A DNA stretch of 21,195 nt, taken from the IMG/VR virus record IMGVR_UViG_2534681940_000040, one strand, 5' to 3'. Positions 14,182 through 21,195 of the stretch are shown here, piece by piece. This DNA comes from a virus (taxonomy: Duplodnaviria; Heunggongvirae; Uroviricota; Caudoviricetes). The position numbers were made by a program, and so were the translations under genes. The notes beneath the pieces were generated by a model that ran no database searches, was not told the DNA's origin, and saw nothing but the letters and a program-made list of their open reading frames with translations. How positions within the stretch are numbered: position 1 is the first letter of the stretch; every line of letters begins with the position of its first letter.

Positions 14182-16148
14182 CTGGCTGAACCGCTTCCGA
14201 TTACGTCAAAAACAGGGCCAAACCGTTCAAAGGTGTCGCGCAACGGGGTCAGCCTTTCCATAATCCCGCTGAACACCCCGGCAAAGAAAGCCCTGATAGG
14301 ATCCCAGTATTTCCAGATAAGAACGGCAGCTCCGGCAAGCGCAGCCACGATAAGACCAACCGGACTGAACAACGCCCCGATAACGCCTCCCAGTAAAGAA
14401 ACGGAACCCGTCACCATTCCCCATAGCGCAGGTAACACCCTGACGACATTCATTGACCGGGTAAGAATGTCAAAACCAAGACGCAGGGTGGCCAGCTTCC
14501 CGTAAAGCACCCCAATAACCAGCGACAACGAGCCAATCGTTGCAGTCATTGCCAGCAACGCACCGCCTGCTATCAGTAGCTGGCGCGTCAGTACCGGATG
14601 GGCCTGCGCCAGCGAGGTGATTTTTTCAAGCACCCGCGTGAGCCACTGCGTGACAGAACGCAGCGGACCGTCAACCAGATCACTGATGCGAATACGAAGA
14701 CCTTCCCATGCGCTGTCGAGATTTTTCAGGTCCCCATCAAGATTATCAGCCATTACTTTTGCGACGCGATCGGCCTCTCCCCTTGCCCCCTGCAATTCTC
14801 TGGTCAGTTTTTGCAGCTCTCCTGAACCAGCCGCCGCAACAAGCGTCTGCAAACCAACGAACGCCTCTTCTCCGGCGATGTCCTTGAAGAAGGAGACCTG
14901 GTCCACCTGTCCGTATTTTTGTGTCGCCTTATAGAGATCAAGCAGCACATCCTCCATCGGGCGCATTTTGCCTCTGGCCTCAGCAACTGACACCCCCAGC
15001 TCTTTCAGTGCATCAGCCGCAGCTTTTGGCGGTGATGCAAGGCGGGACAGACTTGCGCGCATGGCCGTGCCAGCATCGCTTCCGCGAAGACCATTATTGG
15101 CAAGCATCCCGGCCATGGCCGCCGCTTCTTCAAGACTGATACCAAGTTTTGCGGCAACCGGACCGGTATACTTCATGGTTTCGCCCAGCGCGCGTAAATC
15201 AGTATTGGTCCGGGTAAATGCTGCTGTCAGCGTATCGCCCACCCGGTCCATTTGATCGGCTGTCAGGTTGAACTGTGTGAGGATATTGGAGCCTATATCA
15301 GCCGTCTCGCCGAGTTCGACGCCACCTGCCAGCGCCATATTAAGAACACCGGGCAATGCGGCCTGAATGGCCTGCGGAGTAAAACCAGCCATTGCCAGAA
15401 AGCTCTGCCCACTGGCGGCATCACTCGCAGTAAACTGTGTTTCAGCAAGTTTTAACGCCTGCTCACGCAGCGCCTTAAACTGCGGGCTGTTTTTGTCGAT
15501 TCGCGTCAGTGCCTGAACGCGGGACATCTCTTTGCCGAACCCGATCGCAGGCTGCAAAAAACGCCCGGCAGCATAGCCGCCCGCCGCTGCCGCACCAATT
15601 GCCAGCGCACCACCTGTTTTCAGTTTTCCCGCGGTTTCCTGCGCGTGCGAATACCGCTCACGCGCCTGCGTTACACGCGCAAGCGCCTGCCGTTCGCGTT
15701 CAAGCTGGTTGTTGTATTGTTCGGTGCGTCTGATGGCCTGCTGAATGGTGTTATCGCTGCCTGTCAGGGAAATGCCGTGGCGTTTCAGCTCTCCGCCAAG
15801 TTCCCTCATTTTCTGAATTTCCCGTGTGCGCGATTCATTCAGGCGTTCAAGCCGGGTGCTTAACTGCTGCATCAGCTTTTGTTGTTTTTCGCTGAGCACT
15901 GTACCCGTGCGTTGTAACTGATTAAGGGCGTTAAGCTGGCGTCGTGCTTTCACGATGCCAGCATCCGCTTTACTGACAGCGTCGCGGGCGCGCTCAAATG
16001 ATCGCGCCTGACGCTCGAGATTTTTGATCGCCCCCTGCGTTCGCTGGATGGAGTCACCAAACTGCCCCATCAGGCGGCGTGCGTTTTCGGCAGGTCGGGT
16101 CAGCCTGTCAACGGCGCTGAAAGCGACCCGGATATCAAGAGTCTTCAT
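14058..16148 (-). CDS. T: tail tape measure protein, N-terminal portion (gene apparently frameshifted)
   Basis: Long ORF starting MKTLDIRV at ATG 16148, overlapping the E' stop. Its last approximately 40 residues are Cys/Arg/Trp-rich and look out of frame. Confidence 0.75.
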   Translation of the reverse strand: MKTLDIRVAFSAVDRLTRPAENARRLMGQFGDSIQRTQGAIKNLERQARSFERARDAVSKADAGIVKARRQLNALNQLQRTGTVLSEKQQKLMQQLSTRLERLNESRTREIQKMRELGGELKRHGISLTGSDNTIQQAIRRTEQYNNQLERERQALARVTQARERYSHAQETAGKLKTGGALAIGAAAAGGYAAGRFLQPAIGFGKEMSRVQALTRIDKNSPQFKALREQALKLAETQFTASDAASGQSFLAMAGFTPQAIQAALPGVLNMALAGGVELGETADIGSNILTQFNLTADQMDRVGDTLTAAFTRTNTDLRALGETMKYTGPVAAKLGISLEEAAAMAGMLANNGLRGSDAGTAMRASLSRLASPPKAAADALKELGVSVAEARGKMRPMEDVLLDLYKATQKYGQVDQVSFFKDIAGEEAFVGLQTLVAAAGSGELQKLTRELQGARGEADRVAKVMADNLDGDLKNLDSAWEGLRIRISDLVDGPLRSVTQWLTRVLEKITSLAQAHPVLTRQLLIAGGALLAMTATIGSLSLVIGVLYGKLATLRLGFDILTRSMNVVRVLPALWGMVTGSVSLLGGVIGALFSPVGLIVAALAGAAVLIWKYWDPIRAFFAGVFSGIMERLTPLRDTFERFGPVFDVIGSGSARCLTGLNRCCHRWSPARKRWINVPVLARYSVTFLVVRYSLF

Positions 16149-16664
16149 TGTCTGCATTCCCGCTGCGAAGTGCCGCCCGCTCACGCCAGCTAACCACTTC
16201 GCCGGGCGTCATCATGAAGATTTCGGCGGGCGACCAGTTAAAAATAACGGCAATATCTGCCACAAAGTCTTCTATGTGCTCAAAGCACACAACCGTGATC
16301 AGGCTTCCGTCGCCTGTTCGTTCTTCCCGCCAGAGTCCGCACCGCTCAAAAAATTTACGGCAACCACACATAACTGAATAAAGTCACGGGATGCCATTTT
16401 TTTGATCGTCACTTCATCCAGTCGCGGTGATGTCACGCGTGACAGCAGCGTAAACATGGATTCCGCTTTCAGATTCAGCACATCAGACAGCGACAAATCT
16501 CGCAGAGATCCAGCCTGCTCAATAGCCCCGGTGATCTCCACATACGTGATTTTTTCGCCGCCTCGCTCAATTGGTTGGGTAAGTTTTACACCACGCTCAC
16601 TGGTTTCTTTCACAGTGTCAGTAACTACCGTGTTTTCGGTATCGATGTTTTTCGTCTCTTTCAT
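16135..16664 (-). CDS. gpE+E' -1 programmed-frameshift fusion product
   Basis: Slippery heptamer T-TTT-TTG at 16347-16353 (minus strand) in the E frame. The -1 frame continues KFFERCG... to a stop at 16135, overlapping the T start. Confidence 0.7.
16299..16664 (-). CDS. E: tail assembly chaperone gpE
   Basis: 121-aa ORF with SD AAGGAG 7 nt upstream; position between the tube and tape-measure genes. Confidence 0.85.
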   Translation of the reverse strand: MKETKNIDTENTVVTDTVKETSERGVKLTQPIERGGEKITYVEITGAIEQAGSLRDLSLSDVLNLKAESMFTLLSRVTSPRLDEVTIKKMASRDFIQLCVVAVNFLSGADSGGKNEQATEA

Positions 16665-16718
16665 CAGGAAACTCCTTTCAGTCAGAGGCGACGCACTGCG
16701 CCGCCTGCATATTACTTA

Positions 16719-17231
16719 TCAGCCAAGCCCAAGCGCGGAACGGATGCGATCGGGCACAATGTCCTTGCCGTCCTTCCGGTAAATGAAGTTCAGCAGGTCA
16801 ATCTCCCACAACGGGCGATCGTTAACACTCAGCTTGTAGTAGGTGTTTTTAATGGCGTAAGTGTGTGATGTGGCTTCGCCCTGTTTGGCTTCCCCCATAT
16901 CAATTTCCGTCACACGTCCGCGCATTTCGACTTCATACAGGTCGCTTTCATCATCGGTGTAGTATTCCCCCGCAAAACGCAGTAGCGTGCCGTCAATCGT
17001 GCCGCCATACTTCAGGAACAGCTCACGAACTGCGCCCCCCATGACAAAGCTCGCATCAAGCGCGGAGTCGTCCAGGCCGAGGTCAATACTTACCGCACCC
17101 ATCATGCCACCACCCCGGTAGCTGTCGGTTTTGCGCGTCAGTTTAGGCAGGGTGACGGACGTCACCTTACCCACTTCGTTTTCACCATCCACAAACAGCG
17201 TAAAAAAGCGAAGATGTTTTGGTACAGCCAT
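16719..17231 (-). CDS. FII: tail tube protein gpFII
   Basis: 170-aa ORF; size and sequence fit P2 FII (172 aa) as recalled. Start overlaps the FI stop (TGATG). Confidence 0.9.
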   Translation of the reverse strand: MAVPKHLRFFTLFVDGENEVGKVTSVTLPKLTRKTDSYRGGGMMGAVSIDLGLDDSALDASFVMGGAVRELFLKYGGTIDGTLLRFAGEYYTDDESDLYEVEMRGRVTEIDMGEAKQGEATSHTYAIKNTYYKLSVNDRPLWEIDLLNFIYRKDGKDIVPDRIRSALGLG

Positions 17232-18415
17232 CAGGCACCTCCCAGCACCGCAAATGCGGGACCAAAGAATTCATCAGTAAACGACTGGTAAAGCTCCATG
17301 TCTTCCAGCGGAGGAACGGGCGTATATTTGTAGCGAATACGCACACGCCCCTGACGTAAATTCGTGGTGCTGTTATCCTCGATGTCATACCAGCACTCCG
17401 CGCCAATCAGTTTCCCGGCAGTAACCAGTGAATCCAGTTTTGCCCTGATGGCACTGATAACATCCTTCACGTTCGCAGGTGTCAGTGGACTGTCGATGGT
17501 TTCAAACTGCGCTTCCGCAATTGAATCAGCCAGCACCTGTGCGGTTCGGGTATACACCTCAAAGATGTAGGCGTTCGTTTCCGGTGTGCGGTTGCCCCAG
17601 AAGCGGAACCCGTTGCGACGAATAATGGTCGTGATTTCTTTGTTGTTGAGGCTGTTGGCATCACTGTCTTCGGCCTGCAACGACCAGAACACATGCCTCG
17701 ACATCCCAAGCACATTTTTAACCGGAACGTTGGACAGCGATTTGTGCCAGCCCTGCTCATGGTCAATGTACGCACGAAGGCCGCACGCATAAGCAGGCGC
17801 GGGGAACGTTTCGTTTTTGCCACTTTTCAGGTTGTAGGCGATGAAGTCAGGCCATAAGAGCATCACCTCACGTTCGTTGAATTTCTGGCGGTAGGTAATC
17901 GCCTCAGCCATCGTGTTACAACCATGACATGTGGCATACACAAACGCGCGCAGTTTACCCGCAATCACGCACAGGGATTTTGTTACCGCCTCCGTGTCCA
18001 GCTCCGGCGCGGCCAGAATACGCGGACGGTATCCGATGCTTTCATCCTGCTCTGCAACAAGCAGCGCATACATCCCCGTATAGCTGCCGTCAGATTCAGA
18101 ACCACCGATAACCAGTTGATCCTGCGTCTTACCGCCTTCTTCTTTGTGTTCAGCCACGCGAACGACGATCACTTTTGTGCTCACCTGGTCTGCGATAGCC
18201 TTAAGCGCACGATAAAGCGTCCCCGTAGTCCCGCATTTTCCCAGCACGTCATTGACGCGGGTCAGCAGTGTGGGCTTGTTCAGCGGGAACAGCTCCGCGT
18301 CCGCATCATCTGCCGTTGCCACGATACCGATAACACTGGAATCAACATCATTAATCGCTGTTACCAGGTCGGTACTTTCCGTAACACGGGCACCATGAAA
18401 ACGAGTTTCACTCAT
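17231..18415 (-). CDS. FI: contractile tail sheath protein gpFI
   Basis: 394-aa ORF (P2 FI is 396 aa) with SD AAGGGG upstream. Confidence 0.9.
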   Translation of the reverse strand: MSETRFHGARVTESTDLVTAINDVDSSVIGIVATADDADAELFPLNKPTLLTRVNDVLGKCGTTGTLYRALKAIADQVSTKVIVVRVAEHKEEGGKTQDQLVIGGSESDGSYTGMYALLVAEQDESIGYRPRILAAPELDTEAVTKSLCVIAGKLRAFVYATCHGCNTMAEAITYRQKFNEREVMLLWPDFIAYNLKSGKNETFPAPAYACGLRAYIDHEQGWHKSLSNVPVKNVLGMSRHVFWSLQAEDSDANSLNNKEITTIIRRNGFRFWGNRTPETNAYIFEVYTRTAQVLADSIAEAQFETIDSPLTPANVKDVISAIRAKLDSLVTAGKLIGAECWYDIEDNSTTNLRQGRVRIRYKYTPVPPLEDMELYQSFTDEFFGPAFAVLGGA

Positions 18416-18573
18416 AGCTTCAGCCCCTTGTATCCGTTAAATGATTCGGCAACAATCATCACCCACCACTCGCGTAATCTCACCCCTGCGCCGTTCATCC
18501 CGCCACGGCGACAACAAAAAGCAGTAACCCCCTCCGCACGCACATGCGACCATGCCGCACAGGGAGGGAACAG

Positions 18574-18742
18574 ATGACCGACACCACCATGCAATTGCTC
18601 AGTCAGGGCACAGACCACGTGAAAGTGCCGGATTTTGATATTCTCGCGGAGGGTAAAACGCTGTCAGGCGTGGCAGAGCGCCTGATGAGCCTGTCACTGA
18701 CCGACAACCGGGGATTTGAGGCGGACCAGCTCACCATCACGC
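18574..18742 (+). pseudogene. D: tail protein gpD, N-terminal fragment interrupted by IS3
   Basis: ATG 18574 with SD GGGAGGG. Encodes MTDTTMQLL...LSLTDNRGFEADQLTITL, matching the gpD N-terminal motif (LTDNRG.EADQL) as recalled. Frame is broken by IS3 at 18743. Confidence 0.8.
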
Positions 18743-18796
18743 TGAACCGCCCCGGGAATCCTGGAGACTAAACTCCCTGAGAAAGAGGTAAACAGG

Positions 18797-19123
18797 ATGA
18801 CTAAAAATACACGTTTTTCCCCCGAGGTCCGTCAACGGGCAGTCCGTATGGTTCTGGAAAGTCAGGGCGAATATGACTCACAATGGGCGGCAATTTGTTC
18901 CATTGCCCCAAAGATTGGCTGTACACCAGAGACTCTGCGTGTGTGGGTTCGTCAGCATGAGCGGGATACCGGGGGCGGTGATGGTGGACTCACCACCGCT
19001 GAACGTCAGCGTCTGAAAGAGCTGGAACGTGAAAATCGTGAACTGCGCCGCAGTAACGATATCCTTCGCCAGGCTTCCGCTTATTTTGCGAAGGCGGAGT
19101 TCGACCGCCTCTGGAAAAAATAA
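18797..19123 (+). CDS. insE: IS3 orfA (InsE)
   Basis: 108-aa ORF; recognised IS3 orfA sequence. Confidence 0.9.
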
Positions 19124-20010
19124 TGCCGCTGCTGGATAAGCTGCGTGAGCAGTACGGGGTCGGACCGGTATGCAGTGAACTGCATATTGCCCCGTCAACG
19201 TATTACCACTGTCAGCAACAGCGACATCATCCGGATAAACGCAGTGCCCGTGCGCAGCGCGATGACTGGCTGAAGAGAGAGATACAGCGCGTATACGATG
19301 AAAATCATCAGGTGTACGGTGTGCGTAAAGTCTGGCGCCAGTTGTTACGCGAAGGTATCAGGGTGGCCAGATGTACAGTGGCGCGCCTCATGGCGGTTAT
19401 GGGACTTGCCGGTGTTCTCCGGGGTAAAAAGGTCCGTACTACCGTCAGCCGGAAAGCCGTTTCCGCAGGCGACCGCGTAAACCGTCAGTTCGTGGCAGAA
19501 CGTCCTGACCAGCTGTGGGTGGCTGATTTTACTTACGTCAGCACATGGCAGGGCTTCGTCTATGTGGCGTTCATCATTGATGTGTTTTCCGGATGTATCG
19601 TGGGGTGGCGAGTCTCATCGTCTATGGAAACGACATTCGTGCTGGATGCACTGGAGCAGGCGTTGTGGGCCCGTCGGCCGTCCGGCACAGTCCATCACAG
19701 TGATAAAGGTTCTCAGTATGTATCACTGGCCTATACGGAGCGACTAAAAGAAGCAAAACTGCTGGCATCAACAGGGAGTACAGGTGACTCGTATGACAAC
19801 GCGATGGCGGAGAGCATCAATGGTCTTTACAAAGCGGAGGTAATACACCGTAAGAGCTGGAAAAACCGTGCAGAAGTGGAACTGGCCACACTCACGTGGG
19901 TGGACTGGTATAACAATCGACGATTGCTGGGAAGGCTGGGTCATATCCCTCCGGCAGAAGCAGAAAAAGCTTATTATGCTTCCATCAGAAACGATGATCT
20001 GGCAGCCTGA
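19123..20010 (+). CDS. insF: IS3 orfB transposase (InsF), DDE integrase fold
   Basis: 295-aa ORF in the -1 frame relative to orfA, start overlapping the orfA stop (TAATG). Confidence 0.9.
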   Translation: MPLLDKLREQYGVGPVCSELHIAPSTYYHCQQQRHHPDKRSARAQRDDWLKREIQRVYDENHQVYGVRKVWRQLLREGIRVARCTVARLMAVMGLAGVLRGKKVRTTVSRKAVSAGDRVNRQFVAERPDQLWVADFTYVSTWQGFVYVAFIIDVFSGCIVGWRVSSSMETTFVLDALEQALWARRPSGTVHHSDKGSQYVSLAYTERLKEAKLLASTGSTGDSYDNAMAESINGLYKAEVIHRKSWKNRAEVELATLTWVDWYNNRRLLGRLGHIPPAEAEKAYYASIRNDDLAA

Positions 20011-20052
20011 GTTCACAGATAAAACACTCTCCAGGAAAACCGGGGCGGTTCA

Positions 20053-20153
20053 CGCTGGATGATGCAGATGGTCAGTTGCAGCTACCGCCACGGGGCGCGC
20101 GCCTGACGGTTCTCATTGGCTGGAAAGGAGAACCGCTGACAGAAAAAGGCACT
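20053..20153 (+). pseudogene. D: tail protein gpD, internal fragment between IS3 and IS30
   Basis: With one CGC copy removed the reading continues in frame: ...TITL|DDADGQLQLPPRGARLTVLIGWKGEPLTEKGT, then is cut by the IS30 end at 20154. Confidence 0.75.
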
Positions 20154-21195
20154 TGTAGATTCAATCTGTCAATGCAACACCCCTTTCAATTATCTCTTTC
20201 GGTGTTTTGAACTTCAGTGTCTTTCTCGGTCTGTTGTTTAGCTGAGCAGCAACCAGATCTAGTTCATGTTGAGTATATTGGGCAAGACATGTCTTTTTAG
20301 GAAAGTACTGCCGAATTAGCCCATTTGTGTTCTCATTTGTTCCCCGCTGCCAAGGACTCTGAGGATCGCAGAAGTAAACTTTAACGCCGGTGCTGACAGT
20401 AAATTCTAGATGTCTGGCCAGTTCCATTCCTCTGTCCCATGTCAGTGATTTTCTGAGTTCTGACGGTAAACTCAGGAATTTGTCGGTAAGAGCCTGATTT
20501 ACTGAGACAGAATCTTTGCCCCTGAGTCTGAGGATGATCGTATAACGTGATTTTCGGTCTACAAGTGTGGCTATATGAGAGTTTTTTGTACCTGAGACTA
20601 AATCGCCCTCCCAATGCCCTAGAGAGCGTCTGTTATCGATATTTCGGGAACGTTCGTGAATTGGTGTTCCGTTCACTATGTTAATCGTACCTCTTTCGCC
20701 TTTGCGGGTATGACGCCTGCCATGGCGAAGGCTATGCGACCGTCGCAGATGCTGTATATTCAGGTGGTGTAGCGCTTCACGGCTACGAAAGTACAGCGTT
20801 TTATAAATTGTCTCAGGTGATATTCGCAGCGTTTTTTGACGTGGTTTTGTTCGCCTTAACCATCCTGATATTTGCTCTGGAGACCATTTCATCTCCAGCT
20901 TTTCCAGAACAAGCTTTCGCAATGGTAAATTTTGATCCAGTAAGCACGGTTTTGGCCTTTTCGCCATTCTGTTGGCTCGGTTATTAGCATCAACAGCTTT
21001 GTAATAGCGTCTGCCCCGATTACGCTGAACTTCACGTGAGATCGTCGAAGGACTGCGATTCAGCGCAGTAGCTATCGCACGAATGCTCATTTTGGCTGAC
21101 AAACCAGCTCGTATCTCCTCGCGCTCAGACAGTGTCAGGTGAGCTACAGCCCGCTTACGCTCATGGGGTTTTATGCCGCCAGTATCCCTTAACAT
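20154..21195 (-). mobile_element. IS30, partial (runs off the window end)
   Basis: Terminal IR TGTAGATTCAATCTGTCAATGCAACA at 20154-20179; transposase on the minus strand. Confidence 0.85.
20161..21195 (-). CDS. insI: IS30 transposase (InsI), N-terminus beyond the window
   Basis: 344 aa visible, recognised as the IS30 transposase (about 383 aa full length). Stop at 20161-20163. Confidence 0.9.
   Translation of the reverse strand: MLRDTGGIKPHERKRAVAHLTLSEREEIRAGLSAKMSIRAIATALNRSPSTISREVQRNRGRRYYKAVDANNRANRMAKRPKPCLLDQNLPLRKLVLEKLEMKWSPEQISGWLRRTKPRQKTLRISPETIYKTLYFRSREALHHLNIQHLRRSHSLRHGRRHTRKGERGTINIVNGTPIHERSRNIDNRRSLGHWEGDLVSGTKNSHIATLVDRKSRYTIILRLRGKDSVSVNQALTDKFLSLPSELRKSLTWDRGMELARHLEFTVSTGVKVYFCDPQSPWQRGTNENTNGLIRQYFPKKTCLAQYTQHELDLVAAQLNNRPRKTLKFKTPKEIIERGVALTD

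Follow-up and report, generated by a model that had tools for sequence, protein, structure and literature searches.

Insertion sequences IS629 and IS30 in the gene D fragment of a P88-like prophage remnant

The stretch of DNA analyzed here, virus record IMGVR_UViG_2534681940_000040 (Caudoviricetes; 21,195 nucleotides, below called the window), carries the locus of the prophage remnant Sp13 of Escherichia coli O157:H7 Sakai, situated between yecA and leuZ-cysT-glyW. The relatives of Sp13 are the P88-like phages of the genus Xuanwuvirus (Peduoviridae). The right part of the window holds a fragment of a gene assigned to phage gene D (gpD), divided by two insertion sequences (IS). The 5' fragment of the gene (codons 1–56 and the first base of codon 57) is located at 18574..18742 (+). 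It is followed by a complete element of 1310 bp with TG...CA ends at 18743..20052 (+), assigned here to IS629/IS1203 of the IS3 family, by the continuation of gpD (codons 57–89) at 20056..20153 (+), and by IS30 at 20154..21195 (−), of which 1042 bp lie inside the window. The triplet CGC flanks the IS629 copy on the left (18740..18742) and on the right (20053..20055).

The start of gpD, the ATG at 18574, is preceded by a GGGAGGG ribosome-binding site and agrees both with the Prokaryotic Genome Annotation Pipeline (PGAP) annotation of CV261 and with the annotated gene D of phage P88. The fragment shows 98% nucleotide identity to P88 gene D, and also the piece between the two insertion sequences is collinear with that gene, as its translation shows. 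In CV261 and others the fragment bears the PGAP label 'phage late control D family protein, incomplete'. The remnant of 89–112 amino acids gave no Pfam or NCBIfam match because it is N-terminal to the Phage_GPD domain; the full-length P88 orthologue matches Pfam Phage_GPD (PF05954) with 64.2 bits against a cutoff of 30.1. The fragment was thus identified through the P88 orthologue and not through a domain profile, and by this route it is taken to be gene D of the P2 type (baseplate hub / late control D). When the IS and one CGC are removed, the gpD frame is restored (...TITLDDADGQLQLPPRGARLTVLIGWKGEPLTEKGT, or over a longer stretch ...TITLDDADGQLQ...TEKGT). In the raw coordinates of the window, where 1313 bp (not a multiple of 3) are added, the piece after the IS is out of phase by +2. 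Therefore the first-pass annotation, according to which the frame of 18574–18742 is interrupted and resumes in frame at 20053, was right in its coordinates, while 'in frame' is true only of the restored gene. In its present state the interrupted gpD forms a fusion open reading frame (ORF) of 65 amino acids at 18574–18771.

The ends of the IS629 element are at 18743 (TGAACCGCCCC...) and 20052 (...GGGGCGGTTCA), with 25-nt terminal inverted repeats at 18743–18767 and 20028–20052 that are 88% complementary. The ORF call placed orfA (108 amino acids) at 18797..19123 (+) and orfB (295 amino acids), with the DDE/rve catalytic part, at 19123..20010 (+). OrfB matches the IS3-family transposase profile NF033516 of NCBIfam (314.5 bits against a cutoff of 160, E=1e-93), and the Pfam domain rve (PF00665) is recorded for the identical orfB gene in contig L009 (AIFM01000030.1, assembly GCA_000249415.2), which corresponds to window 8574–21195 with 0 mismatches in 12,622 bp. 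The overlap between orfA and orfB is covered by the ALIL frameshift-stimulating pseudoknot at 19078..19194 (+; Rfam RF01497, 120.9 bits against a gathering score of 50), and a programmed frameshift is annotated by PGAP in identical IS629 copies. IS3-family elements transpose by a copy-out/paste-in route, and their OrfAB transposase is produced through −1 ribosomal frameshifting. The features that characterize the family were all found in the element: a length of 1.2–1.5 kb, TG...CA inverted repeats, overlapping orfA and orfB with a −1 frameshift signal, a DDE transposase, and a duplication of 3–4 bp.

Copies that are 100% identical over the full length (bases 1–1310) are present in other O157 genomes within unrelated flanks, and the boundaries of the element are therefore fixed independently of the gpD locus. 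Identity was 99.8% to the neighboring partial copy of Sakai, annotated as 'IS629 transposase OrfB' and 'IS1203 Family: IS3 partial', and 95–100% to copies labelled by PGAP as 'IS1203' and 'IS3 family'. By these comparisons the element is IS629/IS1203, a member of the IS3 family. The element had earlier been read as a complete IS3; its completeness, its boundaries and its family were supported, and only the name was not. IS3 itself was ruled out by a comparison with the reference copy IS3A of K-12, in which blastn found nothing but an 11-nt chance match, OrfB was only 28% identical to InsF, and OrfA had no BLASTP match. The reference comparison proposed in the first-pass annotation thus upheld membership in the family and not nucleotide identity to IS3. 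IS629 is known to produce target duplications of 3–4 bp, and 62% of its copies in O157 are located in prophages or prophage-like elements (PMC3271280).

A 3-bp match between two flanks has a chance expectation of 1/64, and therefore it is the comparison with the empty site that decides whether CGC is a duplication. The query consisted of the flanks joined with a single CGC (18200–18742 and 20056–20153) and was searched in complete E. coli genomes. The joined flanks were contiguous, over at least 80% of the query, in 1358 of the 5426 genomes, the identity being 100% in CV261, NZRM4169, Z1835 and Z1836 and 99.8% in most O157:H7. At the insertion site P88 gene D, too, has only one CGC (...ATCACGCTGGATGAT...). 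The single CGC in the uninterrupted genomes and in P88 shows that the duplication is genuine and that IS629 entered gpD by simple insertion. The proposed search for an uninterrupted gpD allele in related strains thus bore out what had been claimed from the window alone, namely an intact duplication at 18740–18742 and 20053–20055 and a simple insertion in place of a recombination joint.

IS30 starts 98 bp downstream of the IS629 insertion. Its right inverted repeat reads TGTAGATTCAATCTGTCAATGCAACAC from 20154, and its transposase ORF (−) runs past the window end. The transposase matches the IS30-family profile NF033563 (276.9 bits against a cutoff of 80, E=2e-82). Alignment to the K-12 reference IS30A placed the terminus of the right inverted repeat exactly at 20154, as had been proposed together with a distance of about 100 bp, and showed 5 mismatches in 1042 bp. 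In L009 the whole element covers 11581–12755 (1175 bp, ending at window-equivalent 21328) and has CT on both of its sides; the same flanks are present in CV261, and the CT is single in P88. IS30 is accordingly a simple insertion of its own, with a 2-bp CT duplication.

Beyond IS30 the gene continues in frame for only about 85 bp (L009 12756–12845, YIVDEIAHEGPPDRLSARSADFR), with a 6-bp deletion in comparison to P88. The similarity to P88 gene D ends there, just past the window end, at ...GATTTTCGGGATG followed by TGAACCG.... A separate deletion has taken away about the final two thirds of the 1101-bp gene. The earlier description of gpD as hit twice was correct for both insertion sequences and too low in its count, as the lesions are three: IS629, IS30 and the terminal deletion. 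The seven nucleotides TGAACCG at the deletion joint are the same as the first 7 nt of IS629, a match too short to be distinguished from chance.

The junctions of the two insertion sequences are very differently distributed. The junction between gpD and IS30 was present in 246 complete genomes, Sakai included. For the junction between gpD and IS629 there was no one-piece match in the 5426 complete E. coli genomes, the nearby matches being IS629 copies at other positions, and the 65-amino-acid fusion ORF was recorded on only three contigs of a large public collection (L009, L010 and L011). These counts, 246 against 0 of 5426, show that IS30 and the deletion are the older lesions, ancestral and old in the O157 lineage, and that the IS629 insertion is a younger, recent and lineage-specific one. 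The order 'IS3 insertion, then IS30' given in the first-pass annotation thus describes the order along the sequence; in time IS30 came first.

The window includes also a truncated second copy of IS629 at 10482..11538 (−). It consists of the 1057 bp next to the left inverted repeat, its right end is missing, and it is inverted relative to the complete copy, from which it differs by 2 mismatches (1055 of 1057 bases identical). In Sakai the same sequence is annotated as 'IS1203 Family: IS3 partial' with a length of 1057 bp, and the same truncated copy is present in CV261. The ALIL pseudoknot was matched in it at 11087–11203. On one side the truncated copy adjoins the partition genes, without an inverted repeat, and on the other the start of the tail-fibre assembly gene. 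In the interval comparable to this site P88 holds its whole head, lysis, baseplate and tail-fibre region, and the site looks like an old IS-associated deletion common to Sakai, CV261 and others.

The two copies are separated by 7204 bp, the segment 11539..18742, which according to its ORFs and the annotation of identical DNA contains tfa, an acetyltransferase gene, gpU, the frameshifted tape-measure gene, E/E', the tube gene, the sheath gene and the 5' end of gpD. Two IS3 copies inverted relative to each other and about 7.2 kb apart had been reported here; the orientation and the spacing were correct, and the second 'copy' is the 1057-bp 3'-truncated remnant that ends at 11538 and not at 11539. 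The 1057-bp inverted repeat could serve as a plausible substrate for homologous, RecA-dependent inversion. Inverted isoforms were searched with a synthetic junction made of the partition-gene flank and the reverse complement of the gpD/sheath flank, two pieces that only an inversion would bring close enough to be joined, and none was found in the 1414 genomes carrying the locus, the search being blind where the second IS629 is more than about 440 bp downstream. At least 20 of these genomes have a full IS629 nearby in the same relative orientation. What had been called a substrate for future inversion is thus a real inverted repeat, and the inversion itself is a possibility of which no inverted isoform was found.

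Head, lysis and baseplate genes are missing from the remnant. The tape-measure gene at 13345–16184 (−) is present as two overlapping ORFs of 708 and 278 amino acids, and is annotated as frameshifted in all relatives. The divergent order of the sheath gene (−) and D (+), which differs from P2 where FI...U D are on one strand, was considered as a sign of a past inversion and rejected, since the order is native to P88-like phages and is present in 1358 genomes. Between tfa and gpU, at 12115–12720 (−), there is a gene of a hexapeptide-repeat serine O-acetyltransferase, a cargo gene replacement; at this position P88 has an alternative tail-fibre cassette and a DNA invertase. ParM/StbA-like plasmid segregation genes are located at 9172–10450 (+), after the replication gene of the integrated P2-like prophage. 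Above their gathering scores, Rfam matched isrK and C4 antisense RNA at 5344–5418 and 5454–5541 (+), in or upstream of the early operon's antirepressor region, and 'IS009' at 11836–12034 (+), inside the tail-fibre assembly gene.

The part of the locus equivalent to window 18743–20400 contains further IS629 copies in other strains. In complete O157-type genomes about ten positions, at distances of 56 to about 715 bp on the downstream side of the window site, hold IS629-family copies in the same orientation, and three further positions hold copies in the opposite orientation. Coordinates of such copies are L003 14516–15825, L004 10505–11814, L013 2856–4165 and L014 2948–4257. Several IS629 subtypes, of 95–100% identity, are represented. 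At four of these positions the duplications were read base by base and each has its own of 3–4 bp: GTT at gpD nucleotide 225 in CEC01302, CGG at 49 bp into IS30 in NZRM4169, and, within IS30, TCT in FDAARGOS_293 and GTTG in CEC96047. The differing positions and duplications indicate that the gpD remnant and the right end of IS30 have been struck by IS629 repeatedly and independently. It is a tentative suggestion, with the balance somewhat against it, that IS629-family insertions have a true hot spot in the roughly 0.8-kb stretch formed by these two. If the insertions exceed the neutral expectation, a preference of the IS629 transposase for some local feature of the DNA, such as the end of another IS, would be suggested.

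Other insertions of the same element were seen outside this stretch. In FRIK944 the tail sheath gene of this remnant is split by an IS1203-type copy (L002 9901–11210) that has GTT duplicated at its ends. In CEC96047 a copy 100% identical to that of the window (L003 19870–21179) interrupts uvrC with a CTT duplication, and a loss of nucleotide excision repair is to be expected in that strain.

Taken together, the locus is very probably the result of a transposition of IS629 into the already dead gpD of Sp13 with duplication of CGC, that is, of ordinary decay of a defective prophage. The succession of events started with the insertion of IS30 into gpD with its 2-bp CT duplication. A deletion about 85 bp beyond IS30 took two thirds of the gene, and an IS629-associated deletion most of the late genes of the prophage. 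A functional-looking IS629 then entered codon 56/57 of the residual gpD in an E. coli O157:H7-type chromosome, duplicating CGC, presumably by the copy-out/paste-in transposition of the family to which it belongs. The new copy and the resident truncated one now form an inverted repeat of 1057 bp, with 7.2 kb of defunct tail genes between them. As both gpD and the prophage were already dead, the IS629 insertion is most likely neutral, and it is confined to one strain lineage. No evidence contradicting this explanation was found. Some points limit it, however: the activity of the IS629 copy and the neutrality of its insertion are matters that we infer, the inversion search had its blind range of strains with a second IS629 more than about 440 bp downstream of the site, and the window ends inside IS30, so that the CT duplication and the terminal deletion rest on L009, presumably the source of the window, and on relatives.

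The insertion could also be read as a joint of recombination or inversion, in which a homologous exchange with another IS629 had joined unrelated flanks. An inverted partner copy is indeed present 7.2 kb away, and repeat-mediated inversions do occur in O157 genomes (PMC7430833). Yet a single continuous gpD sequence runs collinear with the two flanks, the perfect 3-bp duplication is single in the empty site, a comparison by which the joint is already refuted, and the 7.2-kb segment has the same orientation as in Sakai, CV261 and phage P88, leaving this reading a very small probability. Slightly less improbable, though still very unlikely, is an artefact of assembly, with a copy of the repeat put in the wrong place of a draft genome: IS629 is present in multiple copies and the sole assembly with the full context (GCA_000249415.2) is a draft. 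The same junction between gpD and the IS, with the 65-amino-acid fusion ORF, is however found in assemblies of two independent sequencing runs (L010 and L011), and transposition predicts exactly the two junctions and the duplication observed.

A functional consequence would follow if an outward or hybrid promoter of the IS, or the paired IS629 left ends, altered expression or mobilised the tail-gene segment. Nothing specific speaks for this, but the recurrent IS629 insertions in the stretch could be read as selection. Such an effect is nevertheless highly improbable in a prophage that lacks its head, lysis and baseplate genes and has a frameshifted tape-measure gene; the upstream copy is without its outer inverted repeat, and no composite transposon is thus formed. 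The recurrent insertions, being at differing positions and in both orientations, fit target preference or neutrality better than selection.

A transposition of IS629 into a dead gene is a known kind of event and carries little biological weight as such. There is ample documentation of IS629 insertion polymorphism in O157:H7 prophages, and strains are already typed by it. Found in three public datasets and in none of the 5426 complete genomes, the junction between gpD and IS629 is rare and specific to its lineage, and could be used as a marker in typing or provenance studies; the locus also offers a clean example of nested, datable prophage decay, its steps being IS30, then the deletion, then IS629.

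Among known systems, the element is closest to IS629/IS1203, the predominant IS of E. coli O157:H7, with which it shares the length of 1310 bp, the ends, the 25-nt repeats, orfA and orfB with the pseudoknot, and the 3-bp duplication; from the copies in other O157 genomes the window copy differs only in its insertion site. IS3 proper (K-12 IS3A) has the same architecture of two overlapping ORFs, a DDE transposase and a 3-bp duplication, but there is no detectable nucleotide similarity between it and the window element. The IS30 copy has the inverted repeats of K-12 IS30A (1221 bp), is identical to it in about 99.6% of the aligned bases and shares the 2-bp duplication. It differs in its length of 1175 bp: past the end of the window, CV261 and L009 show that 46 bp are deleted internally next to the left inverted repeat. 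With them the transposase gene has lost its native ATG and its first codons, and PGAP places its start at a GTG further upstream (L009 11581–12755; L001 12642–13816). At the level of the prophage, Sp13 of Sakai has the same chromosomal locus, the truncated IS629, the frameshifted tape-measure gene and the junction of gpD with IS30, and differs by having no IS629 in gpD. Phage P88, unlike the remnant, has an intact gpD of 366 amino acids and all the late genes.

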